NCBI RefSeq assembly: GCF_023055435.1
Contig: NW_025964223.1
Coordinates: 50,282,001-50,346,000, forward strand
Direction of reading: 5' to 3'
Length of the DNA: 64,000 bases
Origin: Haliotis rufescens
Lineage: Eukaryota
Shown: piece by piece, positions 12,601 through 44,489 of the stretch
Position numbering within the stretch: the stretch's first letter is position 1
Layout of the letters: each line of letters begins with the position of its first letter
The notes under the pieces: model-generated
Told to the model about the DNA's origin: nothing
Database searches by the model: none
Seen by the model: the letters and a program-made list of their open reading frames with translations, nothing else
Translations under genes and position numbers: made by a program

Positions 12601-15600
12601 TGGGAAAGGGAAGTTACCAACCACCTGGCTCACATACTGAAACCCAGGCCAATCCTCGGGCGCCTGTGAGTCGGTAAGGGAAAGATGGCACACAGAATTA
12701 AAGTAGGCCCTGTATACAGGAACCCAGAGCTGTTGGGCTTGGAGAATAAAGGATTCCTCCAGGCTTTTATCGCGACTCAACAGGTAGGCGAACTTCAGTT
12801 GACCAAGATAAAGGCTGAGGACCCAAAGTGCCCTCAATGTGCCTCATTATACGTCTACGACACAACTGAGGAATCCGACTGAGCCAGAGCCTCCCCCTCC
12901 GACACTTGCGGATGATCTTACTCGATCTACGCAAGGTGTAACTCCTCCAATGATATTTCTAGCATCGATGTAAAGTAAATGAACAGCTTGTCTTAACGTG
13001 TTGTGAAAGTGGGTAGACAGGAACATTGTGCCTCCTGATGACAAGGTGGTGATTATTTGTGATTCGTACCACTCTCATGGTCACGCTATCTGCTAGGTTT
13101 GTCTTAACAGGCATAGCAAAACCAAAAATAGTCAACATGTCGTTTGGGATCTTTCTGAATAGCATGTACAGTTGCCATATTTGACTGACTGTGAAGTTTG
13201 GTTACACTCCGTATGACTAACATACGATAGCTGCAAAATGTTATGTCTAATTTTTCATCGGCACACAGTGATTTAAGAGACGTAACACACCTGAATTTGA
13301 TCCAGTTTCACTTGAGGTCTCTGGTTTTGAGGCCAGCCAATTTGCATATACATCATCCAGGAACTCATAGTTGAACGTGATTTCATAGCCGGGTCGCTCT
13401 GGGTTCTTCTGAGCTCCATAGCTCAGGCAGCGATCAAACACTCGCTTTGCCACATCTGGTTAATGAGAAATAATTGCTGATTAACCCGTATAGACACTAA
13501 TAAAATGATACATCTCTGGATAGTGCTATGTTGCAGTGTATTTTGTAACTATATTTCCGATTACTGTAAGTGGCAGCAAATTGATTGAGGCGCTCGTACA
13601 ATGTTGAGTTATGGTAGTGAACTTGATTTAGAGTGACCTCTCTTGGTTGTGTACAGTAAAAACTCCGTCCAAGTACGTGACACCTTTGTTAACCTCCCGG
13701 AATAGAGAGCTCGACTGTGAATGCATACGATTCAAGGCGGCATTTTTATCTAAAAGTGCGAGACGAGGGCGATTCGAGGCCTTCATTCCACAACCTTGGA
13801 CTTATCTACTTGCCCTGTACGGATGGGATACCTATCGGGACACTCCGACTGTTCTGCCTGCTTCGGAGCACATGCTTCATTCAAGACATTCAACTGTGAC
13901 AAATTTTGGACATTCGTGAGTGCACTGTCTTGTGTAGTAGGGCATATTTTTAATTGCTGCAGCTGCATTTTTTTGTTTTTGACCCATTGTATTGCCTTTT
14001 CTGATTGTAAACCTATTCCTGTGTATTTTAATTCGTGGATTGTTCATTGATCTTGTGTGTCTATTTACTGATTTAGTTCTGTAGATACTGATTTCTTGGT
14101 TAACCTTCGTGTTTCGATTTGGGAATCAGCACGTAACAGTTGAGAGATAGACCCCACTAACACCACGCCACAAACCTGCTTTGGTGAATTAAAGCCGACC
14201 CTTTATTTTGTGATCAAATATACAACTGAAAAATGAGGTTCAAAGATGAAACCTTATAACCAATCTCATCGACATGAACCAAAGGTCATTGAACAAGTCA
14301 GTCCGCCACTACCTAGCATTTGTAACAGGATCTATTATTCTGGTGATTGAATATTGGGTACGACAATGTAGGAGACTGCTTTAATGATCAGCTGATAGAG
14401 TCGAACCTGGCATCTTCCTGATGAGCTTCCTCATCGGTGTGTCTAGATGTCCTGTGTTCAGGTTCAGTGATGAGTGTCGCAACGCATCCTTCCAAACTTC
14501 AGAGTTGATAATCACCATGGCAACATCACTGTCATGAAAACACATGAACACATATCAGTGAACTTGACGTTAGTGAGGGCTGTAACTATTCACCGACCGT
14601 TCATTGCATCACTGCATCGTTAAGCATTGTTATACCATGCCTCCTTTGTCTTTGACCGGACATTAACTAATTCAGTTGTTATTTAAGCACCATGTGGCAA
14701 TGACGGAACTTCTTTTTTCCCCCTATCATTTCCCTTGATGATAGAACAATTCACGAAAAACGTGTGTCGCCAGCAGGATTCGGACCTGGGAAGTCCCCAC
14801 CGAAGGCTAACGAATCATGGAAGAAATGTTATGACATTAACAACTAAATTATCTGCCGGGGAAAGGAAACTATACACATGTCTTTCTATTAATTGGCTTA
14901 GTTATTCAAGATTTCACTAAGAATAGGTTACCATATTGCATGTGACAATATTATCTACGTATTAACAATTTATAACAATGTGAGTTACTGTCACAATAAT
15001 TATGTTTTATGTTATGGTTGGCATGAAAATTTATTTTTATTTTGATAATCGTGATAAAACAAAACCTTCAAAATTAAATAACTTGAACTCACTTGTTGTG
15101 GTTTTCAATGGCGATACTAAGACTGTTTAGACCCTCGGAGTCCGGCAACGTGACATTTGCACCCCATTTAAGGAGGAGGCTTACTACCGCGGCGTGACCA
15201 TTGCGACTTGCAAGATGAAGTGGAGTGGTCTGCAGTAAATGTGCAGAGTGATTGAGTGCTGGCATATGCCGGCAGGCACACCATAAATGGCATCCGCAAT
15301 AGTATACCTATGTTTGTTTTCTATTTGATGTCTATAACAGTGAATGTGTCACTTTAATACCCTATAAGCAACAATGCTTGGAACATGTTGGTACTTCATC
15401 TACGATCATGTTAGGCATTTCTTACGACTGAGGCAGTGTTCTCCACTTTGATGGCAATGCTTACAAAATCATTTCTTGAAACTGATTCATTGATTACATC
15501 CTTAACTTGGAATCTAAACTATGTTATATCCATTTTCGCAGTATATCCCTGTGCGCGCCAATACTGCACTGCCACACTCTCGACAGAAAAGTAATTAAAA

Positions 15601-18600
15601 GCAAATAATATCCCCCAACTGTACATGTCGATGGTCGACCTGGTCTCTTGTACAGTTGACGGCTATTTGAAGCTGACCTTATTCATATCTATGTTGTGAA
15701 TGGGTGCATCATGTTCCAGTAGGATTCGGCATGCCTTCAAACATCCTTTGGATGCTGCCAGATGCAGGGGGGTCGACTCATCATAAAGTCTCTTCCTAGA
15801 AACCAAAGAAGGAAGTATGTGAGAATGAGTTTCTCTCAAAGAGATTTCTGAGAAAGGGGTTCATCAAAAAAGTTTCTCAGAAAGGGGTTCACAAAATAGT
15901 TTCTCAGAAAACAGTTCAGTAATAGGTATTGAGGACAGACAAGAGGTAGACTTTTGTGAAAAATAGGTTCTGACAATAGGAAGACGAGGTTTGTTCTATA
16001 TTGCTTCTCAAATCTTGCAGAAGTGTGTTAGATACTGCCTCAGAGAACTGACATAAGAAATGAGTCAAATATTGCTCTGATAACTGAAAAAGAGGGCTGT
16101 CAGAAATAGGCATGCTATATGAACATAATTTATTTATATAAGCTATAAAGTAACAACTCTTTATGGAGATGAGTCATTAAAAACAAATAAGTTTTTTTCT
16201 GTTAAATTCAAACTCTTTGATCCGAGATCAGTGCCCTTCAAGTGTCGATTTCATGAGCTTTTTAAAGAAATAGACCTATAATTGATCATCATGACATTTT
16301 TAATGTCGTCTATTTTGTCCCCTTCCCTTTGAATGTTAATCAGGCAAATATAGAACAAATATATTTGCCAAGCTTTTTATCAAAATGGTCAATTAGATTT
16401 TAAAAGAAATACTGCTAATTAACACGTCTGTCCTCCCTGACCTATAACAACACAAACCACATACATGGTAACATCTGCTCCTAACTCCAGGAGTAGTGTC
16501 ACTGCCTTGTCATGCCCCTGCATGGCTGCCAGATGTAGGGGAGTGTTGGAGATCGCATCCCTGTCATTGACTGACGACTTGTCACGCTTCACCAACTCTC
16601 TCACAATGCTGAAAGACCAAGAAACAGTTTCTTGATTAATCAACACATTGACTTAGTATCTTAGATTTTCGACCACGTTTCTAGGTTCCTTTTTTATTCG
16701 TGAACACTTGTACACATAACCATCACGAGTACTGAAGGTACAGTTCCAGCCTGATTAGAACTGTTTCACTGAAGTCGAAAAGGTAACAGTCAAAGGTGTT
16801 TCGCGAACATCTGGTGTCATTTTCAGTGATCCATTTATGTAATGTTCACCTCTAGTTTTCCTCTTGTCTCATCATGTAATCGCTAAACTGAGGGACTAAA
16901 AGGGAATACAGAGATGTTTCTGATGTCATGGGCGTGAAAGGCTCGGTTTAAACCACTGGCATTGTGGCCCCAATGGGTTAAGAGTCTGTACGCTGTATAT
17001 ATGCAACATTACTTCCTGCAAAAGTAGTTACCTTATCCTGCCACACTTGGCAGCGAGGTGTAATGGTGTCTGTTGGTCTTCATTCCTGCTGCCGAGAAGA
17101 GCTCCATTCTCAAGTAATGTCTAGAAAATAAGGATGAGCTGAAATGTTTCTCGGAAAAGAGTTCAAGGAAACACACACCCCAACAATTTTTCTGGGGTAC
17201 ACATACTGAGAAAGCAACAAACTACACAAAGAATTCGAAGTCGCAGTTGAATATAATAGCGGCGATCTGGTAAGAAACCAACATGACATTGGACTTACGT
17301 CCCTTCCTTCTCATGTGTTTACGACATACAACTGGACAACCGGTTCCAAAGAACTGCTCAATGCTCTATCACCCCAGCATTCAACTTTGCATTATTTGTA
17401 TGGCTGCTTTGGGGGAAGTTTAAACCATCATTTTATGTGTTTTTCATTCACATTAGTGTACTTTGTTTATCTTTTCATGAAGACAACATACAGCACATAT
17501 TTTTTTCTTAATAAAAATATATTTCCTTTCTTTCTATATTATATACAAATATATTACAAATAGTGCTTTTACCAATCAAATACCCTTTAAATTATCTCTG
17601 TAATAAAAACTACTTCACAATTATTTTTCTATGATAAAAACTTGTTTACATTTTACACTGCAAGTATACTTCAGTTTATCTCTCTATGATAAAACATGGG
17701 GCCTTTAAGATTTTAACAATGCAATCATACCTCAATGTAAAGAAAACCTACCACATGTTAATTTATATTTTATGACGAATTGCTAATCTCTGAGATGAAG
17801 GATGGAAGCCTATCTTACCACTAGGATCTCGCTGTAACCTTCCTGAGCTGCAACATGCACAGGATTGGTGACATAGCTTTCATTTCCATGGATCATCCGC
17901 TTCACGTTTGGGTAAGACAACAGTTTCTAGAAAACAATTTATTTTCAACTGCAGATTGTACACCTCTAATACCCTATAGGTGTACCAGAGGCGTAAAAAA
18001 TATTTTAACCAATATTTACAAATATGTTTCTGTACAACAACTTTATATGAATATTGACATGTTCTGTATAATTAACTTATCTTTACTCTTGAACAAAGAT
18101 AGGATTTTTATGATATTTGGCTAAATGTAATACGCAGGTATATGTTTTCTCCTTAATGTGTACAAGTAAAAAGTGATATTCATCCTCGATAGCTAGGATA
18201 TCGCAAAACTTGCATTATCGTTCTGTTCTCTCAGAACTTTAGTATATCGCCCACTCTCGTTTGAGAGATCATGAGAGGAACATCTAAATCCTGACAAAGC
18301 AATACCATATGTGTTTTCTTATGTCCACTACATAATGAAGTAATAACAGTCAATGCTTTTAATTTATCGATGTAGATAAAACAAAAAGCTGTCGTTACAT
18401 TCTTCAGATTTCTGAGAAGAATTCTAATAAGGGGAATGGGTGTTTATGAATTTCGATTCCAGAAGAAAAATCATAACTAACCCTCAGCACTGGAGCTTTG
18501 TTTTCTTCCGCTGCCAGGAAGATGACGGTTTTGTCGTTCTTGTCGACAGCAGTGTAATCTGCACCTTTCTGTAACAAGAGCTCCACAGTCTCGACGTGAC

Positions 18601-21600
18601 CGTATTTCACAGCCAGCAGAAGGGGGGTGTAGTTGTCTTTGTCACGTCGATTAATCTTTGCACCGCTGTAACCACGGAAGCATAGCTTGTTTAACGTGTT
18701 TACCAGCACAATACCAGCAACCGGCACTACTTTCAATATTATTGACAGAGCAGTTATGTAGATTTGAAGAAGCTTGTGTTGTGAAGTAGGAAAGAAATGG
18801 TCTGACGAAGCCTTGATGGGAGATGTTGCTTAGGGTCTAGTTGTCTAATAATCAACAAGTAGAATAGGTCTTCAGCAACCCATGCTTGCCGTAAAAGGCG
18901 ACTATGCTTGTCGTAAAAGGCGACTAACGGGATCGGGTGGTCAGACTCGGTGACTTGGTTGAGGCATGTCATCGATCCAAATTGCGTGGATCGATGCTCA
19001 TGATATTAATCACTGGATTGTCTGGTCCAGACTCGATTATTTACAGACCGCCGTCATATAGCTGGAATATTGCTTAGTACGTCGTAAAACAACAAACAAA
19101 CAAACAAACCAATAATCAATAATATTTCTTTTTCTCAAATATTGTAATTTTGTTGGTTGCCCTTTAACTATTAAAAACTACACTATGCCAATAGCACGAT
19201 GCTTGTTACAATTCACAAAGACCAATTCAAAGTGGTGGTTACTATTTTTTGCCGGTTTCACAATAACAAATCAAAGTGGACGTTTAAGTCTTACCTAAAT
19301 AGTTTAAAGAAGTTGGTTAATGTTTATTGGTATTTTGATTTATCTTAAGTTGTAATGGTCACTTGCTTTGATGACCTGTTCATACAATGTCCAGGTGTCT
19401 TACACTCCGGTTAGAATATAGGTCCCTAGCAACGTATGCTTGTCCTAAGAGGCGACTAAGACTCGTGGACTTGGTAGATTGTATGTCATCGTATCCTAAA
19501 TTCGCAGATCGATGCCATTGATGTTAATCACTGGATTGTCTGTTCCAGATTCGATTATTCACAAACCGCCGTGATATAGCTGAAATATTTCTGAATGCGA
19601 CGTTAAACAACAAGCAAATACATTGTTATATCGTATGTGTTTATAATTATAAGATGCTCACTTGTTTCAAAGAACTGTGGTGGATAATGTCATTCCAACA
19701 AAAGAATCAAGATGGCTTACTGATCAACAAGATACTTCACAACATCCAGACGACTGAACACAACTGCTTTGTGTAATGGAGTTGCCTGTTCGTAATTCAA
19801 CACATCAATACGGGCCTTGTGTTCCACCAGCAGCTTGACATTCCGGATGTCTCCTGACATGGCGGCCAGATGGAGAGGATGAATGTCGTGTTTCCGGGGT
19901 TTATTCACATAAGCACCTGCAGAACATCAGAAGACTCAGTGACGCCTTGTTCATGTGGGAATTGAGGCCCATCACAGACCACACAATTTTCCAAACTATT
20001 TCTTGCATTGAATTTCTTCTTAAATTTACATAAATAATAACAAAGTTGTTTTCCAAAATATCAGGAGTGAGTGTATGTTGTTTAACACGCCAGCATTATT
20101 TCCGCAATATCACGACAGTCGGCAATAATCAAGTCTGGACCAGGCACACCAGTGGCAGTAAACATAAGCCACGATCCACGCCATCGGGTTACAAATGCAT
20201 ACAATCGGACATTCAAAGACGCATCCGGGGATAGATTTCAAACTACAGATGTTTTCAATGCATACTTAAGTTGACCCACCTTTCTTTAAGCAGAGTTTGG
20301 CCACATCATAATGTCCGTTGTCTACCGCCAGATGGAGGCACGTGTTCATTTCCACGTCTGTATCTGTCACCATCTACATGAGGAACACAGTATGTAATAA
20401 TATAAATGTTTCATGTTTCAGTTCTAAAGTCACTTTTAAAGAAATCCAAGACACATAAAAGGCAGCATTTTATATAATCAATGTTTTATGAGCTAATCCA
20501 CTAGGGAAAATTACAACTAGAGATAAGTGTTACGAACAGTGACATATTGTGTGTGACATACATATGTCCTTTGATTCTTAAATAACAAACTTTATTTCAC
20601 TGACCGATTACATTTACTTTGTGATTTGGGTATTAGTTTAGAATAACCATAAAATATGGGGAAGTTTGTCTTGTTGCAGTTTGCAAAATTAAGAACTGGG
20701 GTTACAAGATTAGATTCCCATGAATAATGAGATTTAGATATGTGCCTACCGTGCATCAAAAGTATGATCTGACATAGTTTAAGCTAAAGTTCTTTAGAGT
20801 ATAGTGTTTGTAGAGTTTGTATTTTTTAAGTACTCATACTGGAGTGACTGCAGTATTTCCGATTCTGAGCATGGCCTTGGTGAGAGTCACTCACACTTGT
20901 AAGCGTCACCCAGCCACCCGCATCACGCGCTCCAACATCAAACAACATCTGCGCAAAGGAGACGTTTCCCGTTGAACACGCATGATGCAGCGGTGTGGAC
21001 ATCTTCATGTCTATGCATCGCAGGTTGGCACCCGCCTCGATCAACATGACTGCCACGCCCTCCTGGCTGTGTATGGCTGCCACGTGGAGGGCTGTGAAAA
21101 GCTGCTTGTCTTCAGCCTGCCAACCACATATACAAATGTGAAATAATACCAATGTCACAACAGCAACTGTAAAATTGTGTAATGATTTCACGACTACCAT
21201 ACACTTTTCCTGAATTAATAAATAGTGCCTCGACTCTGTAGCTCACCTTCGTAAGTAGTCAACACTGTAAAATGTCAAGAATGACATGCATTTATCATTA
21301 GCTTCTGTCAGCATTGATACTTAAATATTCAGGTGCTGATGATTGCCATTTCCAACCTTTTGAGATAACCATGTTTCGGAAAAGTCAACTGAATGTGTAT
21401 TAGCCACTCACATGAACTTGATTTCCTGCAAGGCTCAGCAGATATCTGACAGCAATTTCATTCCCGCTCATGGCAGCAAGATGTAGAGGTGTCTGTCCAT
21501 AGATGTCCCTGACATCGACTTTGGCACCATTCTTGATCAGGAACGATACACAGCTGTCTCCAGAGTTATTCACGGATTGAAGGAGGCCAGTGGCTGTAAT

Positions 21601-24600
21601 CTGGCAACAGCCAAAGACAAATGTGTATGTAAGCATATAGACATGCTTTTGTACATGTTGAATCAAAATTCTTTGAAGAATATTATTGAAACCATTGATT
21701 TGATCATCAATGCAAAATGTCAACTTGGTTTCAGAGGAGATGTCAAAATATGTTTAGTTCTTTTGATTATGGAAAGGGTTTTGTCGCTTTTATTTGTACA
21801 CGCTACATCTACCGTGAATGCATGCGATCCCTTACCGACCCGCTAATTTAACTTACAAATGAAGCCATGGCCTGGTTTCAGCGAGAGGGAAGCCAGTGAG
21901 TGCTGAGATGAATGTGCGCTCAGATTTCATCGCAAAAGCGGCAATATCTCTCTTGTAACATGTGCAACATCCTTGCTGTCATCTACACATTACTTCAATA
22001 TCAAACAATGTAGAATTTACACAAAATGCAGGACATTTGACTACCGAGAGATGTAATCGGCCTCATTCCATTACTTGAGTAACAATGGACACCCGTGACT
22101 ACTTGACCACTTATCGGCTCAATGTAATCACGGGTGGACACCCGTGACTACTTGACCACTTATCGGCTCCATGTAATCATGGATGGACACCCGTGACTAC
22201 TTGACCACTTATCGGCTCTATGTCATCATGGATGGACACCCGTGACTACTTGAGGTGAGGTGAAATGGGGTTTAACGTCGCGTCGAAGATTATTGCACTT
22301 ATATAGCGACGTGCATGAACGTGTATGTGTTTGTGGGGCTGCTGGTACTAGTCCGGACTGATGCCGATTTATAGTGCTAGCTCACTGAGATACCATGCCG
22401 CAGTTTAACATGAATACCCCACTCAGACACAGTATACTGACTCCAAGCCGACCAGTCCTTGTTGTCGAGCGCCAGACAGGGTAACAACAAGTACCATCTT
22501 TTAACGTCTTTTGGTATGACGCGGCCGGGGATCGAACCCCGGACCTTCCGCTCTCCGGGCGGACGCTCTACCACTAGACCACGGAGGCGGTCCGTGACTA
22601 CTTGACCACTTATCGGCTCTATGTACTCATGGGTGGACACCCGTGACTACTTGACCACTTATCGGCTCTATGTACTCATGGGTGGACACCCGTTACTACT
22701 TGACCACTTATCGGCTCTATGTACTCATGGGTGGACACCCGTGACTAATTGACCACTTATCGGCTCTATGTAATCATGGATGGACACCCGTGACTACTTG
22801 ACCACTTATCGGCTCTATGTACTCATGGGTGGACACCCGTGACTACTTGACCACTTATCGGCTCTATGTAATCATGGATGGACACCCGTGACTACTTGAC
22901 AACTTATCGGCTCTATGTACTCATGGGTGGACACCCGTGACTACTTGACCACTTATCGGCTCTATGTAATCATGGATGGACACCCGTGACTACTTGACCA
23001 CTTATCGGCTCTATGTACTCATGGGTGGACACCCGTGACTACTTGACCACTTATCGGCTCTATATACTCATGGGTGGACACCCGTGACTACTTGACCACT
23101 TATCGGCTCTATGTAATCATGGATGGACACCCGTGACTACTTGACCACTTATCGGCTCTATGTAATCATGGATGGACACCCGTGACTACTTGACCACTTA
23201 TCGGCTCTATGTACTCATGGATGGACACCCGTGACTACTTGACCACTTATCGGCTCTATATACTCATGGGTGGACACCCGTGACTACTTGACCACTTATC
23301 GGCTCTATGTAATCATGGATGGACACCCGTGACTACTTGACCACTTATCGGCTCTATGTAATCATGGATGGACACCCGTGACTACTTGACCACTTATCGG
23401 CTCTATGTAATCATGGATGGACACCCGTGACTACTTGACAACTTATCGGCTCTATGTACTCATGGGTGGACACCCGTGACTACTTGACCACTTATCGGCT
23501 CTATGTAATCATGGATGGACACCCGTGACTACTTGACCACTTATCGGCTCTATGTACTCATGGGTGGACACCCGTGACTACTTGACCACTTATCGGCTCT
23601 ATATACTCATGGGTGGACACCCGTGACTACTTGACCACTTATCGGCTCTATGTAATCATGGATGGACACCCGTGACTACTTGACCACTTATCGGCTCTAT
23701 GTAATCATGGATGGACACCCGTGACTACTTGACCACTTATCGGCTCTATGTACTCATGGGTGGACACCCGTGACTACTTGACCACTTATCGGCTCTATAT
23801 ACTCATGGGTGGACACCCGTGACTACTTGACCACTTATCGGCTCTATGTAATCATGGATGGACACCCGTGACTACTTGACCACTTATCGGCTCTATGTAA
23901 TCATGGATGGACACCCGTGACTACTTGACCACTTATCGGCTCTATGTAATCACGGATGATGGAGGAACGTAATAGTCACACCCCTCTAAGTATAAGTATA
24001 TTGACGATGCAGATGAATGAATGATATGACAAAGCACCTGACACAGCTTACCCCAACCATGCATAATACCCAGAACAAATTCATCTAAGAGAATTATAAA
24101 ATTTTGGAAAAAATGCTGTGTTGATAGTGTTTCATTCTCGTCGCAAGTGTAAATTTTCACATCTGAACACATTTTAGCTAACTTAGAGTTCAAAAGGAAA
24201 TCAACAACTACCCAAGTTGATTGATAATTTCTGTTTCTGTTTGTCAGCAATATTCCAGCTATATGACGGCGGTCTGTAAATAATCGAGTCTGAACCAGGC
24301 AATCCAGTGATCGACATCATGAGCATCGATCCACGCAATTGGGATCGATGACATGCATCAACCAAGTCAGCGAGCCGGTTAATAATTCACAAACTGAACT
24401 ATTAACAAATGCGGATGTACAGATACGGTGGCATTACCTCAAATCATCTGTATCCGTGAAGATCTGGGGTAGAATAGGTCTTCAGCAACCCATGCTTGCT
24501 TTAAAATATGACTATGCCTGTCGTAAAATGCGACTAACGGGATCGGGTGGTCAGGCTCGCTGACTTGGTTGATGCAACAAACCAACCAACCCATACAAAT

Positions 24601-27600
24601 CATCTGAACATGCTCAATACAATTCAAGTGTACTGTACACAAGATCCTTGTGATATTACTTCCTGCAGTAATATCTGAACTTCTATTTTACGACTTGGGT
24701 ATTTGTTGTATTGTAAAATGCGGTTCTGTTGAAGGAGTGTGTAATGTACACGTGGACAAGAATGTTTAACTAGTGAAATTATCTGCTGGTATGTTCTGTT
24801 AGCCCTGTGTGTTATTGGAGTTGTTCATGCATTTCTGTACATTTATACACATACACATTATATCAGTATTGTGAACATTACATATTATTGGTATCTTATT
24901 TTAGGTGAAAATCTTGACCTAGGTAGATCGCATATTATACATAAGAGGACAGCACTCACATTTCCTTCACCTGACTCCCCTTCTTCAGAGCTGTTCGTCT
25001 CCTTCCTCTTGATCTTTCCCTTGTGGTATTGGGCTGCGGTGTGGAGGGGGGTGATGTCTTCGTTACCTCTCATGTTGGGGTCTGACAAATCAAGTTAGTC
25101 AACAGAGTACTCTAACCTAAGTAGTGTGTCTCGTCTGACCTAATCGACCCGTGAAGATGCGGGTAGAATAGGTTTTCAGTAACCCATGCTTGCCGTAAAA
25201 GGCGGCTGTGCTTGTCGTAAAAGGCGACTAAGGGTATCGTTAGGTCAGGCTCGCTGACTTGGTTGATGCATGTCATCGTATCCCAATTGCCTGGATCGAT
25301 GCTCATGATTTCAATCACCGGATTGTCTGGCACAGATTCGATTATTTACAGACCGCCGTCACATAGCTGGATTATTGCTGAGTGCGGCGTTAAACAACAG
25401 ATAACAAAAGAAAACATCTGCCCTTCTACATATTATATTCACTGCCTTTGACAGTGTGATCTGCATGAAGACCCGGCGGAGAACCTATTCCATCAATATC
25501 CATTATCACAGACAACTTTACAGCTATATTGCTGCTGGCATGTGTAGAGGGCTAGCTCGAGGTGGGATAAATGGACATTAGCCCAATAGATAGGTCAAAT
25601 TGGAGTAAAACTCTGAGATATATGAGGGAAGAAAATTATCAGACATGTTTAAGTGGTTTGCAGTTAGATTTTTTCTCTCTCTCATGCTTGAGGGTATTAT
25701 CTTTTGTCATAAGCTAGTACATACATGAAGCTAGGAATGGCTACAGTGAATGCAAACAGCACCTTCAAGAGAAAATGCAAATCAGCTTGGGTCAAAGACT
25801 TGCTCATGTTCAGATATTACAAGAACACTTCCTGAAAACTTCTGTGTCATGCATTTTTGCCTAACCTATCATTTCATCTTCGTTTACAATTATCATGGTC
25901 AAGTTCTCAGTCTCATGAACACGATTTCTAAAACGTTACGTCATTTCATCATGCAGATCCTGTGAGCTTTGTCATTCCTTGTCCTATTGGGATAACCTGC
26001 CACATGATTGCGGGACCATTGTTTTACTGGGGACCAAATGATACAGCATAGCATAAACAATGCATGTAGCCATTTGATTACTGGAGAAAAAAATGTGTTA
26101 ATTAGCAATATACAGTGAAATCTCATCACCATCAGACAAGGATTTCTTTAAAATCAATTTTAAAAAATTGCTTACAGATTCCACTGACACTAAAACATAA
26201 AATAATAAAAATTAAAATAAGAGAAGTACTTTTTGTAATGAAGGCACGTTTACTTTAATAAATTAATGCATGCAGCAGGTTAAGCTGCAAGTAGATGGGC
26301 AACATATTTAGCATCTTTTTGAAGAAGGATAAATCATCTGAAATATATTTATTGTTATTGCATTTGCCATCTACAGAAAATGATTCTTCACACAAAAGAT
26401 CCCATAACCAAGAAATAAAAAAGGTGTGGCATTATGAACATGGGTGTATCACTTTTCACCAAATCTGGGTTAACAAAACAGTTTGAGACATCTTTATAGC
26501 GAGCGGCGTCGTGCAGCAGAGTCAAGTCTTATAACAATACCTGCACCAGCCTCCACCAGCTGCTTGACCACACTGAGATGGTTGTAGCGAGCGGCGTAGT
26601 GCAGGGGAGTCAAGTCTTATAACAATACCTGCACCAGCCTCCACCAGCAGCTTGACCACACTGAGATGGTTGTAGCGAGCGGCGTAGTGCAGTGGAGTCA
26701 AGTCTTATAACAATACCTGCACCAGCCTCCACCAGCAGCTTGACCACACTGATATGGTTATACCAAGCGGCTTAGTGCAGTGGAGTCAAGTCTTATAACA
26801 ATACCTGCACCAGCCTCCACCAGCAAATTGACCACACTGAGATGGTTGTAGCGAGCGGCGTAGTGCAGTGGAGTCAAGTCTTATAACAATACCTGCGCCA
26901 GCCTCCACCAGCAGCTTGACCACACTGAGATGGTTGTAGAGAGCGGCGTAGTGCAGGGGAGTCAAGTCTTATAACAATACCTGCACCAGCGTCCACCAGC
27001 AGCTTGACCACACTGAAGTGGTTGTAGCGAATTGCGTAGTGCAGGGGAGTCAGGAATTTGTGGTCCAGTGCATTCACTTTCTTCTTGAGGAGGCCACTGA
27101 TGCCCTGCAGAGCAGTCTGCATGTTAGACTCGTCTCCATATCTGGCACACTGGAGGGAAGTGGTTAACATAATATTTTGCTTAGTTCAACAACATGAGTG
27201 TTATAATACTGGTTACACTGACAACAATAATTAAGTATGCGTGTATTCGTGTTATTTCGTCGCAGGTGGTCAGAATACAGATCATTTTTTCACTTTCACG
27301 AAGATGTTTGAAATCACATTGCTTATACTAACTAATACTTACTTATAGATTTCGCAACTATTGCGTTGAGTACTTTGTTTTCATGACTTGGTCATTATTT
27401 CTCAGAGAATGAAGTGCATAGACGATTGGACCATGTACAATGTATCAGGGCCTTTTGGATGTAACTATTGCAAAACCGTTAGTATTAGTATGACAAGAGC
27501 CCCTGCTCACACAATATGCAAATTCACTGTGTTTATTCAAATTAATATCAATGCCTATCATTTTTAAGATTTAAGTTTTGTTTGTGTGTTGTTGTTTTTT

Positions 27601-28887
27601 TGTTTAACGCCGCACTCAGCAATATTCTAGCTATATGACGGCGGTCTGTAAATAATCGAGCCTGGACCAGACAATCCAGTGATTGACATCATAAGCATCG
27701 ATCTGCGAATTTAGGATGCGATGACATGCCTAAATCAAGTCAGCGACTTGATCACCCGATCCCGTTAGTCGCCTCTTACGACAAGCATAGTCGCCTTTTA
27801 CGGCAAGCATTGGTTGCTGAAGACCTATTCTACCCCGGATCTTTACTGGATTTAAGATTTAAGTAGGTGGTTACTGGGTTAAAATGGTTACGAAGGTAGC
27901 TCTGATCACAGTTAAATCACGCGTGTGTACTAAATTGATAGCCTTTGTCTCTTATGGTATGATGCTGATAGACCAAGCATCATTACTGAGATGAGTTTGA
28001 GATTTAAACCCATAATCACCGGATCCTGGCTAGCTCTCCACAACCAACTGTAGTACCTTTGCCCAGTGGCCCACCTGTGTCACCATTAACGCCGCGATCA
28101 GCAATATTCCAGTTATCTGACGGCGGTCGTGCAAATAATCGTGTCCGGACCAGACAATCAAGTGATCGCCATCACGCCATCACGCTACCACGCAATTGGG
28201 ATACGATGACATGCATCAACCAAGTCAGCGAGCCTGACCTAACGATCCCGTAGGTCGCCTCTCACAAGCATAGTCGCCTCTTACCACAAGCATGAGTTGC
28301 TGAAGACCTATTCTAACCCGGATCTTCACGGGTTAGTGATGTTTTAAGTTAGAAACTTAAATAAATGGAATAAAAAGATGCTAGTGTCATAAACTTAGGA
28401 ACATTACCGATAACTTTCTCAAAATTATCTGGATGTCCTCATTTGTTTAATATGTCAGTTTCTGGAGTTCAAAACGCTCTCATCACAAATCACAAATATT
28501 TTATAACGCCTTACATGTTCATCACCTATTGTTATCTTACGACCAGTTGATACCTCTACAAAATGCCTCATATTTTGAAAAAAGTCACCCACCTCTACGT
28601 TGTATTAGATGATAATCTAAAAGGGGCAAAAGTAATAAAGGCGTGGTCAAACATATCAAATTTATCAACCCATGAAAAATGACCTGCAGACGACAATGTG
28701 TACTTACTTGGTGCAGGGTAAGATTAAGTGCCTCTGAACTGTCGGCGCGCTTCATACCCGAGGATGGGACGGTTGATCCAGGGACATCGCCTGTTTTGGG
28801 GGTCAGGTTCGCCATTTCCATCACAGCCTTGTCGGCAGAACTATCTGACAATCGTCTAAATTGACCAAGAGCAAGTGAGTCAGACAT
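3521..28887 (-). CDS. TRPA1: TRPA1-like transient receptor potential cation channel (ankyrin repeats + 6 TM + C-terminal coiled coil), 24 coding exons, 3606 nt / 1201 aa
   Basis: Hand-spliced exons all have GT..AG boundaries with compatible phases. Many ankyrin motifs (TPLHLAA), linker TPMRKLIRKMP..FDRC..FNYEFLDD, TM segments, pore MMMGEIDF, S6 MNLLVGLAVDDI, TRP-like helix and coiled coil. Confidence 0.95.
3958..4134 (-). CDS. TRPA1: TRPA1-like coding exon 23 (VDLALDVEKSLP...)
   Basis: GT-AG, phase 0-0. Confidence 0.9.
4862..4930 (-). CDS. TRPA1: TRPA1-like coding exon 22 (VGLAVDDIQSVQGQAALKIMAMQ)
   Basis: Manual translation, end of S6 and TRP-like helix, phase 0-0. Confidence 0.92.
5721..5930 (-). 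CDS. TRPA1: TRPA1-like coding exon 21 (pore helix, filter GEIDF, S6)
   Basis: KTGVMMMGEIDF...MSIIAMNLL, phase 0-0. Confidence 0.93.
6022..6222 (-). CDS. TRPA1: TRPA1-like coding exon 20 (WQWSLGAVSVFLAW; S4-S5)
   Basis: Canonical TRPA S4/S5 sequence, phase 0-0. Confidence 0.93.
6500..7560 (+). mobile_element. Decayed Penelope-like retroelement RT fragment
   Basis: Frameshifted remnants VIPTDKASNN, WIPKLH, YLDL and DDFNVPIANHSFMSSNIPAASAFGAYISQNLRYNRAC. Confidence 0.65.
7930..8061 (-). CDS. TRPA1: TRPA1-like coding exon 19 (YFSWTNLIEW, S3)
   Basis: Manual translation, phase 0-0. Confidence 0.9.
8421..8553 (-). CDS. TRPA1: TRPA1-like coding exon 18 (S1-S2 loop, S2)
   Basis: Manual translation ending LHLLKE, phase 2-0. 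Confidence 0.88.
9272..9441 (-). CDS. TRPA1: TRPA1-like coding exon 17 (LLAHPLV..KW + S1)
   Basis: Pre-S1 helix and first TM helix, phase 0-2. Confidence 0.92.
9490..10410. repeat. 22-bp minisatellite (CAGTGGTACATTCATCCCCGCC) with a 307-bp higher-order duplication
   Basis: Direct tandem repeats; identical ORF starts at 9848 and 10155. Confidence 0.9.
10457..10557 (-). CDS. TRPA1: TRPA1-like coding exon 16 (...NHPLMIM)
   Basis: Pre-S1 HPL motif, phase 1-0. Confidence 0.88.
10725..11365 (+). mobile_element. Degenerate non-LTR retrotransposon RT fragment (Rex1/Babar-like)
   Basis: DYRPVAL / MKCFERIV / DPLQF / LFVDFSSAF / GAPKGCVRSP / VKFADD motifs, truncated. Confidence 0.75.
13291..13455 (-). 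CDS. TRPA1: TRPA1-like coding exon 15 (DVAKRVFDRC...FNYEFLDD)
   Basis: TRPA linker motif, phase 1-1. Confidence 0.9.
14407..14528 (-). CDS. TRPA1: TRPA1-like coding exon 14 (DVAMVIINSEVWKDAL...TPMRKLIRKMP)
   Basis: Manual translation, TRPA linker motif, phase 2-1. Confidence 0.9.
15093..15229 (-). CDS. TRPA1: TRPA1-like coding exon 13 (TTPLHLASRNGH...)
   Basis: Manual translation, phase 0-2. Confidence 0.9.
15678..15795 (-). CDS. TRPA1: TRPA1-like coding exon 12 (STPLHLAASKGCLKACRILL)
   Basis: Manual translation, phase 2-0. Confidence 0.9.
16465..16608 (-). CDS. TRPA1: TRPA1-like coding exon 11
   Basis: NTPLHLAAMQGH ankyrin repeat, phase 2-2. Confidence 0.9.
17032..17120 (-). CDS. TRPA1: TRPA1-like coding exon 10 (TLLENGA...QTPLHLAAKCGR)
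   Basis: Manual translation, phase 0-2. Confidence 0.9.
17819..17926 (-). CDS. TRPA1: TRPA1-like coding exon 9 (KLLSYPNV...PVHVAAQEGYSEILV)
   Basis: Manual translation, acceptor ttttctag, donor gtaaga, phase 0-0. Confidence 0.9.
18482..18665 (-). CDS. TRPA1: TRPA1-like coding exon 8
   Basis: YTPLLLAVKYGH ankyrin repeat, phase 2-0. Confidence 0.9.
18859..19110 (+). mobile_element. SINE-like family A copy (GGCGACTAA module, (CAAA)n tail), slightly 5'-truncated
   Basis: Matches the other copies; flanked by direct repeat AATAATCAA(c/t)AA. Confidence 0.8.
19406..19617 (+). mobile_element. SINE-like family A copy, diverged
   Basis: Homologous to 18859-19110. Confidence 0.7.
19721..19916 (-). 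CDS. TRPA1: TRPA1-like coding exon 7
   Basis: HPLHLAAMSG / TPLHKAV ankyrin repeats, phase 1-2. Confidence 0.9.
20280..20373 (-). CDS. TRPA1: TRPA1-like coding exon 6 (MVTDTDVEMNTCLHLAVDNGHYDVAKLCLKK)
   Basis: Manual translation, ankyrin repeat, phase 0-1. Confidence 0.9.
20895..21116 (-). CDS. TRPA1: TRPA1-like coding exon 5 (AEDKQLFTALHVAA...)
   Basis: Two ankyrin repeats, GT-AG, phase 0-0. Confidence 0.9.
21412..21600 (-). CDS. TRPA1: TRPA1-like coding exon 4 (...GQTPLHLAAMSGNE...)
   Basis: Ankyrin motif, donor gtgagt, phase 0-0. Confidence 0.88.
22086..23958. repeat. 49-bp minisatellite (GGACACCCGTGACTACTTGACCACTTATCGGCTCTATGTAATCATGGAT), about 31 units, interrupted by a SINE
   Basis: Near-perfect head-to-tail repeats with no spacers. 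Confidence 0.95.
22254..22591 (-). mobile_element. tRNA-headed SINE family B (Meta-SINE-like body, (CTCAC)n tail), full length
   Basis: A box TGGTCTAGTGG, B box GGTTCGATCC, 14-bp TSD CCGTGACTACTTGA (22240-22253 and 22592-22605). Confidence 0.85.
24235..24575. mobile_element. Two partial family A SINE-like copies in opposite orientations
   Basis: 3' half on the minus strand (about 24235-24378), 5' half on the plus strand (about 24452-24575). Confidence 0.7.
24960..25081 (-). CDS. TRPA1: TRPA1-like coding exon 3 (DPNMRGNEDITPLHTAAQY...)
   Basis: Acceptor tttgtcag, donor gtgagt, phase 1-0. Confidence 0.9.
25147..25405 (+). mobile_element. SINE-like family A copy, full length
   Basis: Starts ACCCGTGAAGAT, ends GCGGCGTTAAACAAC. 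Confidence 0.8.
26495..27055 (-). repeat. 88-bp minisatellite derived from the 3' end of TRPA1 coding exon 2 and its splice donor (5 full copies plus a partial copy)
   Basis: Donor-containing unit recurs at 26980, 26892, 26804, 26716, 26628 and 26540. Confidence 0.95.
26981..27149 (-). CDS. TRPA1: TRPA1-like coding exon 2 (CARYGD...LTPLHYAIRYNHFSVVKLLVDAGA)
   Basis: Acceptor ttccctccag, donor G|gtattg, ankyrin repeat, phase 0-1. Confidence 0.9.
27577..27848 (-). mobile_element. SINE-like family A copy
   Basis: Flanked by direct repeat TTTAAGATTTAAGT. Confidence 0.8.
28085..28333 (-). mobile_element. SINE-like family A copy
   Basis: Homology to the other copies. Confidence 0.75.
28708..28887 (-). 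CDS. TRPA1: TRPA1-like coding exon 1 (MSDSLALG...LTLHQ); exon starts at 28909 with 22 nt of 5'UTR
   Basis: Acceptor tctgtcttcag ending at 28910, ATG at 28887 with an upstream in-frame TGA, donor CAA|gtaagt, phase 0. Confidence 0.8.
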
Positions 28888-29944
28888 TTTGTCTCACGAA
28901 TCCAAATTCCTGAAGACAGATAACAGTACATAAGTGCTTAACCGCAAAAGCTATTTAAGCAGTTTGAATCAAACAAAGTCAGTTGAAGTCATTAGAATAT
29001 ATTGTCAAGCGGTTAAGATATACATAAACGACGGAAAACCTGTGTTGTGAAACGTTTCAAGGTGGTATGTTTATGCGAGCAATGTTGCGGATGGATACCC
29101 CAAGTATCTACCGTGACACTCCTATGCTATGACACAATGGAGACCGCAGGACCCTGAGACACAATGGGCCAATTTGGCAGTTTCTTGTTTATATGAGAAT
29201 ATCAATATTGAAAACAACATTCGAGATAGTTGATACTGATAATCAAATGTGTGAAGGTAGCAGGCCTACTTTCTACAAGGCCAGGTCGAGCTGTTTTAAT
29301 AATACATGCTCTACCGTTGTTTTGATGCCTAATTCTCAGTGATGGTCTACACTCGAGACAAAATGACTTCACTCTGGGGCAGTGGGGCAAAGATATCATT
29401 TTCAGTAATTCTCCTTGAGCATCATAATTTTGGCCTGAAGTTTATCGAATGTCAATGTTTTCGAAACGGCCATTGGTAAACGTAACGTCATAGCATCGCA
29501 TTGTCGAAAATAAATGAATATGACGTCATCCATTGTTCATGCCGCCATAGACGATTTTAGGTGACTTTGTCCCAACATGATTTTCTCAACTTGTGATAAG
29601 AAAACGAACAATTTTCTAAGTTTTCTGAAAGTGTGTGTGAGTTAAATTTTCTCAGAAAAAAATATTGTATATATAAAATGAAAGGTATATGAATGGAAGG
29701 TATGCATACACAGTGATATTAAACTGAAGTCATGTGTATTTTCCTATTGGTTTCGTTTGTCGTATAACATTTTGTAATGCATCGTTACCTCAGTATTATA
29801 AGTAACACGTACTGGAGATATCTATGCCAAAGTGTCTCTTATACAAATAACATAAATAGCTACTTGCCCACAGAAGCATCATGGAAGACACGTATAGCAC
29901 TACATGAATATTCATTGAGGGTTATATTTTTCGTGATGTAATCA

Positions 29945-30130
29945 TCGCTTCCGTGGCCTAGATGATTGGGCGTCTGCCAGGAGAGCAGGAAGTTAGTGGT
30001 CCGATCCCGGCCGTGTCACACCAAAACACGTGAAAAGAGGGTACCTGTTGCTACCCTTCCTGACGCTCGTTATTGAGGGATGACAAAAAGGCTGGTCTGC
30101 TAGGAGTAAGTATACTATGTCTCAGTGGGC
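29945..30130 (+). mobile_element. SINE family B, diverged 5' part
   Basis: Homologous to the head and body of 22254-22591. Confidence 0.6.
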
Positions 30131-32249: not shown

Positions 32250-33020
32250 TTGTAAATAGTGCCATGTGTGATTCTGATACACTGTATATGTGTAAATAGT
32301 TCCCTGCGTGACGCTGATACATTATCTCTATATAAATAGTGCCATACGTGGTGCTGATACAGTGTATAAGTGTAAATAGTGCCCTACGTGATTCTGATAC
32401 ATTTTATATGTGTAAATAGTGCCCTGTGCGATACTGATAGTGTATATGTGTAAATAGTGCCCTCTGTGATGCTGATACATTGTATATGTGTAAATAGTGC
32501 CCTCTGTGATACTGATACATTGTACATGTGTAAAAGGTTGCCCTTTGTGATGCTGAAACAGTGTACATGTTTAAATAGTGCCCTGTGTGATGCTGATACA
32601 TTGCATATGTGTAATTAGTGCCCTGTGTAATGCTTATACATTTCATATGTGTAAATGGTGCCATGTGTGATTCTCATACACTGTATATGTGTAAATAGTG
32701 CCCTGCGTGTTCTGTTACATTATATCTATATAAATAGTGCCCTGTGTGGTGCTGATACAGTGTATACGTGTAAATAGTGCCCTGCGTGTTCTGTTACATT
32801 ATATCTATATAAATAGTGCCCTGTGTGGTGCTGATACAGTGTATACATGTAAATAGTGCCCTGCGTGTTCTGTTACATTATATCTATATAAATAGTGCCC
32901 TGTGTGGTGCGGATACAGTGTATACGGGTAAATAGTGCTCTGCGCGATTCTGATACATTGTATATGTGTAAATAGTGCTCTGTGCGATGCTGGTACATTG
33001 TAAATGTGTAATTAGTGCCA
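32250..33020. repeat. 40-bp minisatellite (TGTAAATAGTGCCCTGTGTGATGCTGATACATTGTATATG)
   Basis: Tandem repeats with period 40. Confidence 0.9.
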
Positions 33021-35680
33021 TTATACCGCATTCACGTCATTATTACATCCATTATACCTCATTCGTGACATAATTACATCCATTATACCTCATTCATGTC
33101 ATTATTACATCCATTATACCTCATTCATGTCATTATTACATCCATTATACCCTATTTACGTCATTATTACATCCATTATACCTCATTCATGTCATTATTA
33201 CATCCATTATACCTCATTCATGTCATTATTACATCCATTATACCCTATGTACGTCATTATTACATCCATTTTACCTCAATCATGTCATTTCTACATCAAT
33301 TATAGCTCATTCATGTCATTATTTCATTCACTATATCTCATTCGTGTCATTATTTCATCCATTATACCTCATTCGTGTCATTATCGCATCCATTATACCT
33401 CTTTCATGTCATTATTACATACTCTATACCTCATTCATGTCATTATTACATCAATGATATCTCATTTGCGTCATTATTACATCCATTATACCTCATTCAT
33501 GTCAATATTACATATATTATACCTCATTCATGTCATTATTACATCAATGATACCTCATTCACGGCATTTTTACATCCATTATACCCCATTCATGTCAATA
33601 TTACATATATTATACCTCATTCATGTCATTTCTACATCTATCATACCCCATTCATGTCATTGTTACATCCATTATACCTCATTTCTGTCATTATTACATC
33701 CATTATACCCCATTCATGTCATTATTACATCCATTTTACCTCATTCATATCATTATTACATCCATTATACCCTATTTACGTCATTATTACATCCATTATG
33801 CATCATTCATGTCATTATTACATCCATTATATCTCATTCGTGTCATTATTACATCCATTAAACCTCATTCACGTCATTATCATGTCCATTATACCTCATT
33901 TACGTCATTATTACATCCATTATACCTCATTCATGTCATTTCTACATACTTTATACCTCATTCATATCATTATTACATCCATTATATCTCATTCGTGTCA
34001 TTATTACATCCATTATACCTCATTCATGTCATTATTACATCCATTATACCTCATTCATGTCATTATTACATCCATTATACCTCATTCGTGACATAATTAC
34101 ATCCATTATACCTCATTCATGTCATTATTACATCCATTATACCCTATTTACGTCATTATTACATCCATTATACCTCATTCATGTCATTATTACATCCATT
34201 ATACCTCATTCATGTCATTATTACATCCATTATACCCTATGTACGTCATTATTACATCCATTTTACCTCATTCATGTCATTTCTACATCAATTGTAGCTC
34301 ATTCATGTCATTATTACATTCACTATATCTCATTCGTGTCATTATTACATCCATTATACCTCATTCATGTCATTATCGCATCCATTATACCTCTTTCATG
34401 TCATTATTACATGCTCTATACCTCATTCATGTCATTATTACATCAATGATATCTCATTTGCGTCATTATTACATCCACTATACCTCATTCATGTCAATAT
34501 TACATATATTATACCTCATTCATGTCATTATTACATCAATGATACCTCATTCACGTCATTATTACATCCATTATACCTCATTCATGTCAATATTACATAT
34601 ATTATACCTCATTCGTGTCATTTCTACATCTATCATACCCCATTCATGTCATTGTGCCATCTATTATACCTCATTCATGTCATTATTACATCCATTATAC
34701 CCCATTCATGTCATTATTACATCCATTTTACCTCATTCATATCATTATTACATCCATTATACCCTATTTACGTCATTATTACATCCACTTTGCCTCATTC
34801 ATGTCATTTCTACATCCATTATACCTCATTCATGTCATTATTACATCCATTATATCTCATTCGTGCCATTATTACATCCATTATACCTCATTCACGTCAT
34901 TATCATGTCCATTATACCTCATTTACGTCATTATTACATCCATTATACCTCATTCATGTCATTTCTACATACATTATACCTCATTCATATCATTATTACA
35001 TCCATTATATCTCATTCGTGTCATTATTACATCCATTATACCTCATTCATGTCATTATTACATCCATTAAACCTCATTCACGTCATTATTATGCCCATTA
35101 TACCTCATTTACGTCATTATTACATCCGTTATATCTCATTCGTGTCATTATTTCATCCATTATACCTCATTCATGTTATTATTACATCCACATTCTTGTC
35201 ATCATTACATCCATTATACCTCATTCATGTCATTATTACATCCATTATACCCCATGCATGTCATTATTACATCCATTATATCTCATTCATGTCATTATGA
35301 CATCCATTATACCTCATTCATGTCATTATTACATCAATTATACCTCATCCATGTCATTATTACATCCATTATATCTCATTCATGTCATTATTACATACCT
35401 TATACCTCATTCACGTCATTATTACATCCATTATACCTCATTCATGTCATTATTACATCCATTATACCTCATTCGTGTCATTATTACATACCTTATACCT
35501 CATTCACGTCATTATTACATCGATCCATTATACCTCATTCATGTCATTATTACATCCATTATACCTCATTCATGTCATCATTACATCCATTTTACCTCAT
35601 TCATGTCAATATTACATCCATTTAACCTCGTTCATGTCATCATTACATCCATTATACCTCATTTATGTCAATATTACATA
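33020..35680. repeat. 31-bp minisatellite (CATTATACCTCATTCATGTCATTATTACATC), about 85 units, with a 992-bp higher-order duplication
   Basis: Period 31; variant patterns recur at +992 (33127/34119, 33375/34367, 33623/34615). Confidence 0.95.
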
Positions 35681-39534: not shown

Positions 39535-42500
39535 TTATCCATATAAAAGATGTTTTCTACGATTAAGAATTAAAAAGCAGACTTTGGCAAGTATAAAACA
39601 CACACTGGAGTCACTGAAAATAAAACAAAGTTTGTCGACATCAGGCATATCTAAAACATTATAAGATTTAGCAATACATTCATTAAAAAGAGTTGCCCTG
39701 ATATCATCATATAATGCGCAGTGAAACAAAACATGGACCTCGTCTTCTACGCTGTCATTACAGTGAAAACATCTTCTATTATTGACAGGTACACCTTCGT
39801 ATCGACCGGTTTCCACTCGAATAGGAGCCACACCACATCTAAACTTGGCTAGTGCCGATCTATAGTTTCTGGGCATCTTATTTGAAACATAGTATTCTGT
39901 CCCATATACTTGTTTGTAACATCGATACATTCTCAATTTATTAAGCCCATTTCGTCCCTCTTCCTTTCTTAACATATCGCTCCAACGGGTAACATATTCA
40001 TTTTTACACCATTGTTCCACATGTGTACAAACAGAAAATTTATCAATAAAACCTGTAGCGTTTAATATATGTCCTAAATCCATATTATTAAACTTCTTTC
40101 TTACCCTACCATTCCAATTTTAACAACCATTTACAGCGTATCTATCAGCCCAGTTAAACACATGTTTGTTTAACCTACTAGACATATTCTTAAGGCGACA
40201 CCATTGTCTTGCTACACTTTTCCACTGTCTGACAACAGGCGGTATCCATCCCATGTCCCCATTTATAGCGACGTTAGGGGCGTATTTGCCGAGTCCCAAA
40301 TAAAATCTAATGGCTCTATGGTGTACAGCATTTATTGCTGACACATCATAATTACCCCAGATAGCCGCCCCGTAGTCAAGAACAGACCACACCATACTAT
40401 CGTACAATTTGGAATAGGTTTGGAAATGCATACCGCCTATTGTCTTAACTTTGGATATCAACAGACCCAAAGCCCTATTAGCAGACTTCGCTGCTGCACG
40501 TGCCATTGCAGTAAAATCTAAGTGGTCTGTGAACAGTAGACCAAGATAATTATATTTAGCAGCAATGTCTAAAATCATATTTCCGACATTAAAAACATGC
40601 TTCGTCTGTATGACAGACGGATTTCTAAAATGGACAATTTTAGACTTTTCCTTATTGATCTCGATCTTATTTGTGCAACACCAAGTATGTAAAACATCTA
40701 ACAGTAGACTGAGATCAGCTTCATTCTCAGCTAGCAATGCTAAATCATCTGCATATGCTAATGCTGCAATATTAAAATTGTCTACAGTTACACCAATATT
40801 AAGACTGTTGAGAGTATATAATAAATCATTTATGAACAAGTTAAAAAGCAAGGGAGATAACAAACACCCCTGTTTTAAGCCACGGTTTACCGTGAACCAG
40901 GAAGTAAAGAAACCATTCACTCGAACACTGCATTTAACACCCTTGTATAATGATTGCAAGGCAGGCAACATTTTGCCTCCAATACCATGGTGAGAAAGTT
41001 TATCCCATAAAATGTTTCTATTAACACAGTCGTAAGCTTTCTTAAAATCTATGAATGCAACAAATGTAGATTTCTTTTTTACTTTTCTGTTTTCTATAAT
41101 TGCTGTTAGCGTTTGGACGTGATCGATAGTAGATCTTTTTTGTCTGAATCCGTTCTGTGAATCATGGAGTACGTCGTTAGCTTCTGCCCACAGTTGTAGT
41201 CTTCTGTTAAGGATACTACAATACAGTTTATAAATGGACGTAGTCAGGGTGATACCCCGGTATGAGAGGGGATCAGTAGGGTCCAGGGTTGAGCACTTTG
41301 GAATGGGACTAATTATGCCTTTCGACCATATTTGAGGAATCTTTCCTGTATTAAAACAATTATTAAAAATATAGTGGAGCGTTTTGGCGATAGCATCAGA
41401 CTTCAGCACCTCGGCGGGGATTTCGTCAATACCCGTTGCTTTTCCTGTATGAGCCTTATGGATAGCAGTCTTTACTTCAAATAGACTTATGCTGTCGTTG
41501 AAAAGAACATGGTCATTGGCGCTCTCACCGTCTCTCCTAGAAACTAACTTCGTGTCACTGTCTCCATTTAGCAAACCGCTAAAGACATTTTTCCACCTTT
41601 CCAACATTATGTCCTTGCCCACACCCACATTCCCATCCTCCATAACTACTGCCATCGGTATTGTCTTGTGCCTCTCCGACCCTACACCTACACGTCCTAT
41701 CTGTCTCCAGAACTCACTATCACGAGCCGTACATAATTCATCTAGACTGTTCACGGTCTCTTTCACATATGCACGTTTAGCCTGTTGTACACTTTGATCA
41801 AACTTCTTACGTAAAGTCACAAAGCAGTGTTTCAGAAATTGTTTATCTGATTTAGTCCTGCATTTACACCATTTCTTTTCGGCTTCACACATCTCGTTCC
41901 AAAAAGTCGTCAGTGAATCGGACCACCATGGCTTCTTGCTCCTCCGTCGTTTATTAGAAGTCTTGGAGTTCAGCATATAGGACCTACTTTTCAGCTTACA
42001 TCTCATTTCTTCTTTAACCAAGCTAATCAAACTGTCTGAGGCTGCGTCGATATCACATTGTGTCACATGTGAGTTCTCCAAGCGCTGGATAATGTCATCT
42101 AAAGTCGTCAAACATTCCGGTGATGACATAAAGTCACGTGGTATATCTGACGTACTGTATTTAGTCACTCTGACACCTTTATCACGAATGTCCACATCCT
42201 CATGAATATGTTCAATATCATATGTCCATCGCAACAACGAGTGGTCTAACTTGGTGATTAGATGTCCGTCTACCTTACCGACAATATCTGCATTACACGC
42301 TAATACATCTGATCTAATAACCTCAAAATTCTGAAAATTAGGAAGATATTCATATGGCACAATACAGTAGTCAACCACTGACTGACCTCTAGATGATACA
42401 TATGTAAAATCATTCAAAACAGCGTTTCTCCCATTGAGAATACAACAATTAGAGTCAATCAAAAATTCTACAAAGCGCCGCCCGTATGCATTGCATGTGA

Positions 42501-44106: not shown

Positions 44107-44489
44107 TTATATATCGATCTTAAAAATAATATCACAGATCGTTAGTCCGATTGACCACTCGTCCCACACAACTTACTATTTCTTTTTGTGGTTTGGCGAT
44201 TTAGCTTTATCGCTTTTTTTCTCACTTCGTTTTCTCTCCGAATTCAAAACTGTCCTCACTGGTCATGCATGCGCATGTTAAATAAGCCAAAGCATATATC
44301 ACTGTATCGTAACTCCATTGAACCTTATGAACTGAAGTTGGAAACATTTTCACAACGGATAGTTCTGTTTGTGAATAAGCCATATATTGTAGACGATGTC
44401 CTGGACTAGCCTATGGTGGAGGTGGTGTACATTTCAGAAATACGAAAGAAAACAATTGATACAGATGAGACTTAAACGGATCACTTCTA

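Follow-up and report, generated by a model that had tools for sequence, protein, structure and literature searches.

The window, a 64,000-nt stretch of the Haliotis rufescens genome, carries on its minus strand a TRPA1-like gene (gene W), the coding span of which extends over 3524-28887 (the low end being computed from the last mapped block) and comprises 24 coding exons. The translated exon 2 is 100% identical to the corresponding part of the 1201-aa RefSeq H. rufescens protein P0001, which maps to these 24 exons and is assigned to the TRPA1-like channels by its N-terminal ankyrin repeats and its ion-transport domain. A search of the species' own genome with exon 2 revealed that gene W is the middle one of three tandem genes located on one contig: paralog A lies 87 kb upstream (82% identity to exon 2) and paralog B 55 kb downstream (87%), their exon-2 equivalents ending outside the window at G000:C445:50396036 and G000:C445:50254188, respectively. 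The identity between coding exons is 0.857 for W-A, 0.843 for W-B and 0.850 for A-B. Against this overall level of ~85%, the exons form a patchwork, as exon 15 is 99% identical between A and B, exon 8 is 94–97% identical in all pairs (97% for W-A) and exon 19 is 96% identical between W and A. This pattern points to repeated conversion within the cluster. Exons with such patchwork identity are located at 13292-13456 and 18482-18664 of the window, with counterparts in the paralogs. The region is also rich in tandem repeats, with long minisatellites at 22085-23958, 32251-35679 and 44480-44879 (units of 49, 40, 31 and 20–49 bp). In addition, intron 16 of gene W contains a 22-bp minisatellite (9484-10410); related copies at ~64–85% identity occupy the equivalent intron of paralogs A and B, and this repeat thus likely predates the duplications. 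A 975-residue stop-free frame at 40123-43047 (minus strand) resembles, on inspection by eye, the endonuclease and reverse transcriptase of a non-LTR retrotransposon.

Coding exon 2 of gene W (26981-27149, minus strand, 169 nt) is identical to residues 61-116 of P0001 and ends in phase 1. In the RefSeq model, position 26981 is joined to coding exon 3 (24960-25081, minus strand, 122 nt), the annotated intron between 26981 and 25081 being 1899 nt long. TRF reported a tandem repeat at 26497-27052, with a period of 88, 6.3 copies, 93% matches, 0% indels and a score of 958. The last 75 nt of exon 2 constitute the first, divergent member of this array and are followed by the annotated donor and a 13-nt spacer (26968-26980, minus strand); five further identical spacers occur at 88-nt steps down to 26528 (26892-26880, 26804-26792, 26716-26704, 26628-26616 and 26540-26528), and the junction of donor and spacer is therefore present in six identical copies, repeated within the intron. 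The spacers delimit five full 75-nt units on the minus strand, each preceded by AG and trailed by GT, four of which are open. Unit 1 (26893-26967), unit 2 (26805-26879) and unit 5 (26541-26615) are open with the replacements R>L, K>N and L>Q, respectively; unit 4 (26629-26703) is open and encodes exactly the peptide of the paralog A exon end; unit 3 (26717-26791) bears a TAA stop together with R>W and L>I. A partial sixth unit (26495-26527, minus strand) is more decayed, differing from unit 5 at 4 of 33 sites, and is followed by sequence unrelated to the intron starts of the paralogs. Directly past the array, no match to a paralog or repeat was found except one of 52 nt at 80% identity. The sequence-only reading had described an 88-bp array of AG/GT-bounded, 75-nt units in phase 1-1, and both TRF and a reading of the strand confirmed this layout. 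The unit peptide that it quoted is exact in the unit at 26703-26629 only, the other open units carrying R>L, K>N or L>Q.

The 26-nt junction of unit and spacer occurs nine times in the 1.33-Gb genome, six times in gene W and three times in paralog A, whereas the reversed control is absent (0 occurrences), which demonstrates that the array did not arise by chance. The first monomer spans an authentic exon-intron boundary and the monomers are arranged head-to-tail; the inner units differ at 2–8 of 72 sites and the partial last one at 4 of 33, as is typical of concerted evolution with a divergent edge. The gene W array is an exon-intron-boundary minisatellite, of the type described for human F7 and for the amphioxus 'mirages'.

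The same array is present behind the equivalent exon of paralog A, as the exon plus three units, and paralog B is devoid of it. Comparison of the units with the different exon ends showed that units 1 to 5 of gene W have, over 72 sites, 2, 5, 8, 3 and 3 differences to the paralog A exon end, compared with 8, 9, 11, 7 and 7 to the exon end of gene W itself. The last 72 nt of gene W exon 2 are themselves 3 sites off the paralog B exon end and 8 off that of paralog A. The better match of the units than of the exon to the ankyrin consensus had been read as a sign of exon birth; it is accounted for by descent from the exon of paralog A, as the units look more ankyrin-like than their own exon because they encode paralog A's peptide. 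The arrays of W and A are 93–96% identical over 94–270 nt (89% in one 47-nt edge piece), whereas all remaining intron matches between the two genes are at 70–90% and the coding exons at ~85%. The first 30 nt past the GT of the array intron are identical at 30 of 30 positions between W and A, the highest value among 69 comparisons. These levels of identity indicate that sequence was exchanged long after the gene duplication. In paralog A, an intron start resembling that of paralog B sits behind the last unit (L003, ending at G000:C445:50395772), and this unit, which precedes the native-type intron start, has a TAG stop; in gene W, the last piece of the array is the decayed partial unit, beyond which the sequence is unrelated. 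As paralog A retains the full original layout and the end of the gene W array is decayed, we infer that the array was born in A and was converted into W, the direction and timing of the event being deduced from one assembly. A different history is conceivable, in which W and A inherited the array from their common ancestor, B lost it, and the copies were homogenised only afterwards; that the array is not brand new can be seen from its decayed last unit and its drifted spacer.

The spacer resembles the native intron start of paralog A, and AAG forms the end of the spacer as well as of the exon sequence immediately preceding the unit, which suggests that the first duplication arose by slippage at a short shared sequence. 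To these comparisons we added contigs from three RNA-like runs (X5, X3 and X14, the RNA status of which is a guess) and from one DNA-like run (X10). One X5 contig, 118 nt long with a depth of 7.3, consists of a spacer and of a unit bearing five letters of the W exon type between a unit-type start and a unit-type end; this single contig hints that exchange may also have occurred from a W-type exon end into the units. This X5 unit type is absent from the assembly.

Near-identical repeats and tandem paralogs are in general hard to assemble, and the gene W array might accordingly be an assembly artefact or a misplaced copy of the paralog A array. However, the units of gene W carry private variants that paralog A lacks. 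Moreover, an X10 DNA contig covers the 3' junction of the array, joining the last spacer and the partial unit to the unique intron of gene W (25850-26548), and this run has depth in 30 of 30 bins. The junction contig and the depth argue against an artefact, an explanation that we hold to be exceedingly improbable. Depth over the array is high in X10, the contigs being too short to yield a unit count.

We then asked how frequent such donor copies are in the cluster. A census of the 71 introns of the three genes recovered copies in intron 2 of gene W, in the matching intron of A and in one further intron of B. This latter case corresponds to a 99-bp donor-repeating array at the exon-17 donor, located below G000:C445:50240899 in paralog B (L014) and below G000:C445:50375330 in paralog A (L021). 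It provides five extra donors in paralog B and four in paralog A, and none is found in gene W. The exon-17 units are of the B-exon type in both A and B: over 76 sites, the paralog A units show 4, 7, 4 and 11 differences to the B exon end, versus 13, 13, 13 and 15 to the exon end of A itself, with scoring based on the four A units and on two of the six B units (three B units with indels being omitted). It is thus likely, from these comparisons of units and exon ends, that an exon-end array moved between paralogs twice, from A to W and from B to A.

The geometry of the exon-2 array raised the possibility that alternate units are spliced in as symmetric 75-nt cassettes through 101-nt introns, each adding an ankyrin module. 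Several features are in line with this proposal of the sequence-only reading: the units are 75 nt long, in phase 1-1 and bounded by AG and GT; skipping the 13-nt spacer and one unit leaves a 101-nt intron of workable length, as the shortest of the 71 introns is 91 nt long and belongs to gene W; and the alternate path from exon 2 includes the open units 2 and 4 and bypasses the unit with the stop (a stop in an odd unit is expected by chance in 3 of 5 cases). However, the units are not each preceded by a usable acceptor, with a pyrimidine tract and Y at -3. We built an acceptor matrix from the 71 acceptors of the three genes, which, these genes being related, are non-independent sites. Real acceptors scored by leave-one-out had a median of 5.1 and a minimum of -4.2, whereas the nine candidate acceptors of the units scored -3.4 to -6.3. 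Eight of the nine fall below all 71 real acceptors, and the ninth is the site of unit 1, reachable only by a 13-nt intron. Among 4833 decoy AGs, 24–44% score as high as the candidates, and A at -3 is found in 1 of 71 real sites; the AAG acceptors, already suspected to be weak, indeed behave like decoys.

The coding content of the units is likewise at odds with a role as exons. The eight full units of W and A comprise 15 variants, of which two are stops (versus 0.2–0.5 expected) and six are missense changes, which, given these small numbers, reveals no protection of the frame. Seven of the 15 variants are synonymous (expected 4.0–4.9; P 0.08–0.19) and no indels are present; this mild synonymous excess, which could favour exon birth, is also the result expected if the units are re-copied from a constrained exon. 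A single module was present in 19 of 19 annotated proteins that were read, out of 21 in four clusters from four assemblies (P0005-P0009, which are unrelated ankyrin proteins, stand outside the count of 19). Furthermore, the unit covers positions 3-26 of the 33 of the Pfam Ank model PF00023 and is thus short of a full repeat. Adjacent ankyrin motifs of P0001 are 33–34 residues apart, and the 25-residue unit is ~8 short of this period; judging from spacing only, an added unit would be without a linker. Finally, neither a 13-nt gap nor a 101-nt skip was found in X5, X3 and X14, in which paralog A is covered and the letters specific to the gene W exon are not, so that the runs probe gene W indirectly. 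Contigs drop rare forms, and the lack of coverage was not taken as silence of gene W. Two joints that could have represented gene W isoforms, from 27064 to 26612 and to 26964, were rejected: they correspond to the paralog A exon in two pieces, the 11 letters in between and the loose ends being paralog A sequence. Similarly, none of the 15 joints listed, out of 1536 over 24000-30100 in X1, X2, X3 and X5, was informative, a high-copy interspersed repeat being dominant. This very high-copy short repeat lies in gene W introns at 24244-24576, 25196-25399, 27596-27811 and 28193-28333, and is very deep in the RNA-like runs. The decoy-like acceptors, the stops in two of eight units, the single module in all 19 proteins and the partial Ank coverage speak against the addition of ankyrin modules. 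The gene W units probably do not represent newly born ankyrin exons, and we regard exon birth through alternate cassettes as very unlikely.

Use of the extra donors by themselves had been anticipated to give stop-containing transcripts. This holds true: whichever downstream donor is chosen, the reading frame closes by codon 88-92, and the first stop stands at codon 92 in each of the five shifts. RefSeq models place the splice at the first donor, and the contigs cannot separate the donors; first-donor use in gene W is thus a RefSeq prediction. In the RNA-like runs, the exon of paralog A is covered at depths of 33.9 (X5), 9.7 (X3) and 2.7 (X14), and the unit-like exon end runs into A's next exon. 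Contigs bearing the spacer have depths of 11.2 and 7.3 in X5, versus 33.9 for the exon, and of 6.7, 7.7 and 2.0 in X3, versus 9.7; that is, from one third of the paralog A exon depth to nearly equal to it. At the unit donor of these contigs, A's next exon is the only loose end, and none of them runs into the native intron of A. One might therefore propose that downstream donors are used appreciably, that part of the mRNA is directed to decay and that the proportion of TRPA1 mRNA that is productive depends on the number of units. In support of this proposal, the array donor has T at +5, whereas G is found at this position in 62 of 71 real donors, and splicing of CBS and 6-16 draws on one or two of their pseudo-donors (PMC1557585). 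However, a T is likewise found at +5 of the native donors in both paralogs, which argues that the weak donor is ancestral. In addition, contig depth cannot give isoform shares, and a sequence present in nine copies can surface from a low background of DNA or pre-mRNA in runs that are only guessed to be RNA; an unspliced exon-intron contig of paralog B is present in X14. The depth of the spacer-bearing contigs hints at downstream-donor use, in which case the extra donors may be more active than those of F7, and nine copies of a pre-mRNA or DNA background would fit it as well. Overall, we consider it improbable that the array tunes expression in this way, although less so than exon birth.

Taken together, these results favour with good confidence an interpretation in which the array is a boundary minisatellite whose units are closer to the exon end of paralog A, was likely gene-converted into W, and provides units that likely act only as extra donors, which would yield stop-containing RNA, and not as new exons. 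The following course of events may be proposed. The last 75 nt of the paralog A exon and ~13 nt of the intron start would have undergone tandem duplication, with slippage at a short shared sequence as the probable mechanism, and then expansion. Units would have been kept coding-like by re-copying from the constrained exon end, and the spacer would have drifted off the native intron start; here the pattern is visible in the units and spacers, and its cause is presumed. Likewise, the shared array is apparent and its presumed cause is an exchange between paralogs 87 kb apart, which would have displaced the native intron start of gene W. Finally, extrapolating from the annotation and from F7-type arrays, splicing at the first donor would produce the normal mRNA, whereas splicing at a downstream donor would introduce a premature stop and probably trigger nonsense-mediated decay. 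A bolder extension, which we put forward as speculative and rather unlikely, is that exon-end minisatellites of the TRPA1 cluster can pass from one paralog into another (from A into W for exon 2, from B into A for exon 17) and act as conversion hot spots that trade sequence back and forth with exon ends, their donors setting the amount of productive channel mRNA for each allele.

These observations offer an explanation of how intronic copies of an exon can look intact without being exons: a constrained exon, here even that of another gene, serves as the template from which they are renewed. The two arrays, each present in two of three paralogs, provide a natural marker of how far, and in which direction, conversion has gone in the abalone TRPA1 cluster. 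If downstream donors were used in proportion to the number of units, the array would constitute a length-variable control on channel dose. Non-allelic gene conversion occurs among tandem paralogs. The abalone cluster resembles such cases in its patchwork identity, with exon 15 at 99% between A and B and exon 8 at 97% between W and A versus ~85%; it differs in that the tract carries a donor-repeating minisatellite behind a divergent exon. The repeat type itself is already known, and the uncommon twist is likely the import of an array from a paralog, twice in one cluster. Among the main texts of open-access papers, we found nothing relevant on the abalone array or on such an array common to paralogs. 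The TRPA1 family is reported to be temperature-responsive in Pacific abalone, in a TRP survey whose main text, in its accessible part, has no mention of 'tandem', 'gene conversion' or 'isoform' (PMC12980990).

Human F7, CBS, 6-16, LMNB2 and PDGF contain minisatellites in which the first monomer lies over an exon-intron boundary, and reported use is confined to the first donor or to the first two or three of them (PMC1557585). As in the 37-bp VNTR of F7 intron 7, CBS intron 13, 6-16, and the 100-bp and 81-bp repeats of LMNB2 and PDGF, the abalone monomer spans the boundary and the donor is repeated in tandem within the intron, and the 88-bp unit is within the LMNB2/PDGF size range (PMC1557585). 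Relative to the F7 group as described there, the abalone array is unusual in that its inner units are closer to the exon end of a paralog, the same array is found in two genes, the spacer happens to end in AG and the exon bases of a unit are a multiple of three; donor choice was tested experimentally for F7 (PMC1557585), whereas the abalone array is known from sequence and contigs. An intronic tandem repeat has also been reported to affect splicing in the case of the ABCA7 intron 18 VNTR (PMC5954066); by comparison, an effect of the abalone array is a candidate only. A further comparison is offered by the mirages of the amphioxus Adh3 gene (cited here via PMC3087553) and of the globin genes BflGb6 and BflGb9, which apparently do not disturb splicing and from which, it was suggested, new exons and introns could arise (PMC3087553). 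Both the mirages and the abalone arrays are tandem copies of exon edges in invertebrates, with concerted evolution, divergent edge units and AG/GT retained in many copies. However, sharing of an array between paralogs is unreported in the accessible part of the amphioxus study (PMC3087553), whereas the abalone cluster harbours two arrays, each common to two of its three tandem genes.
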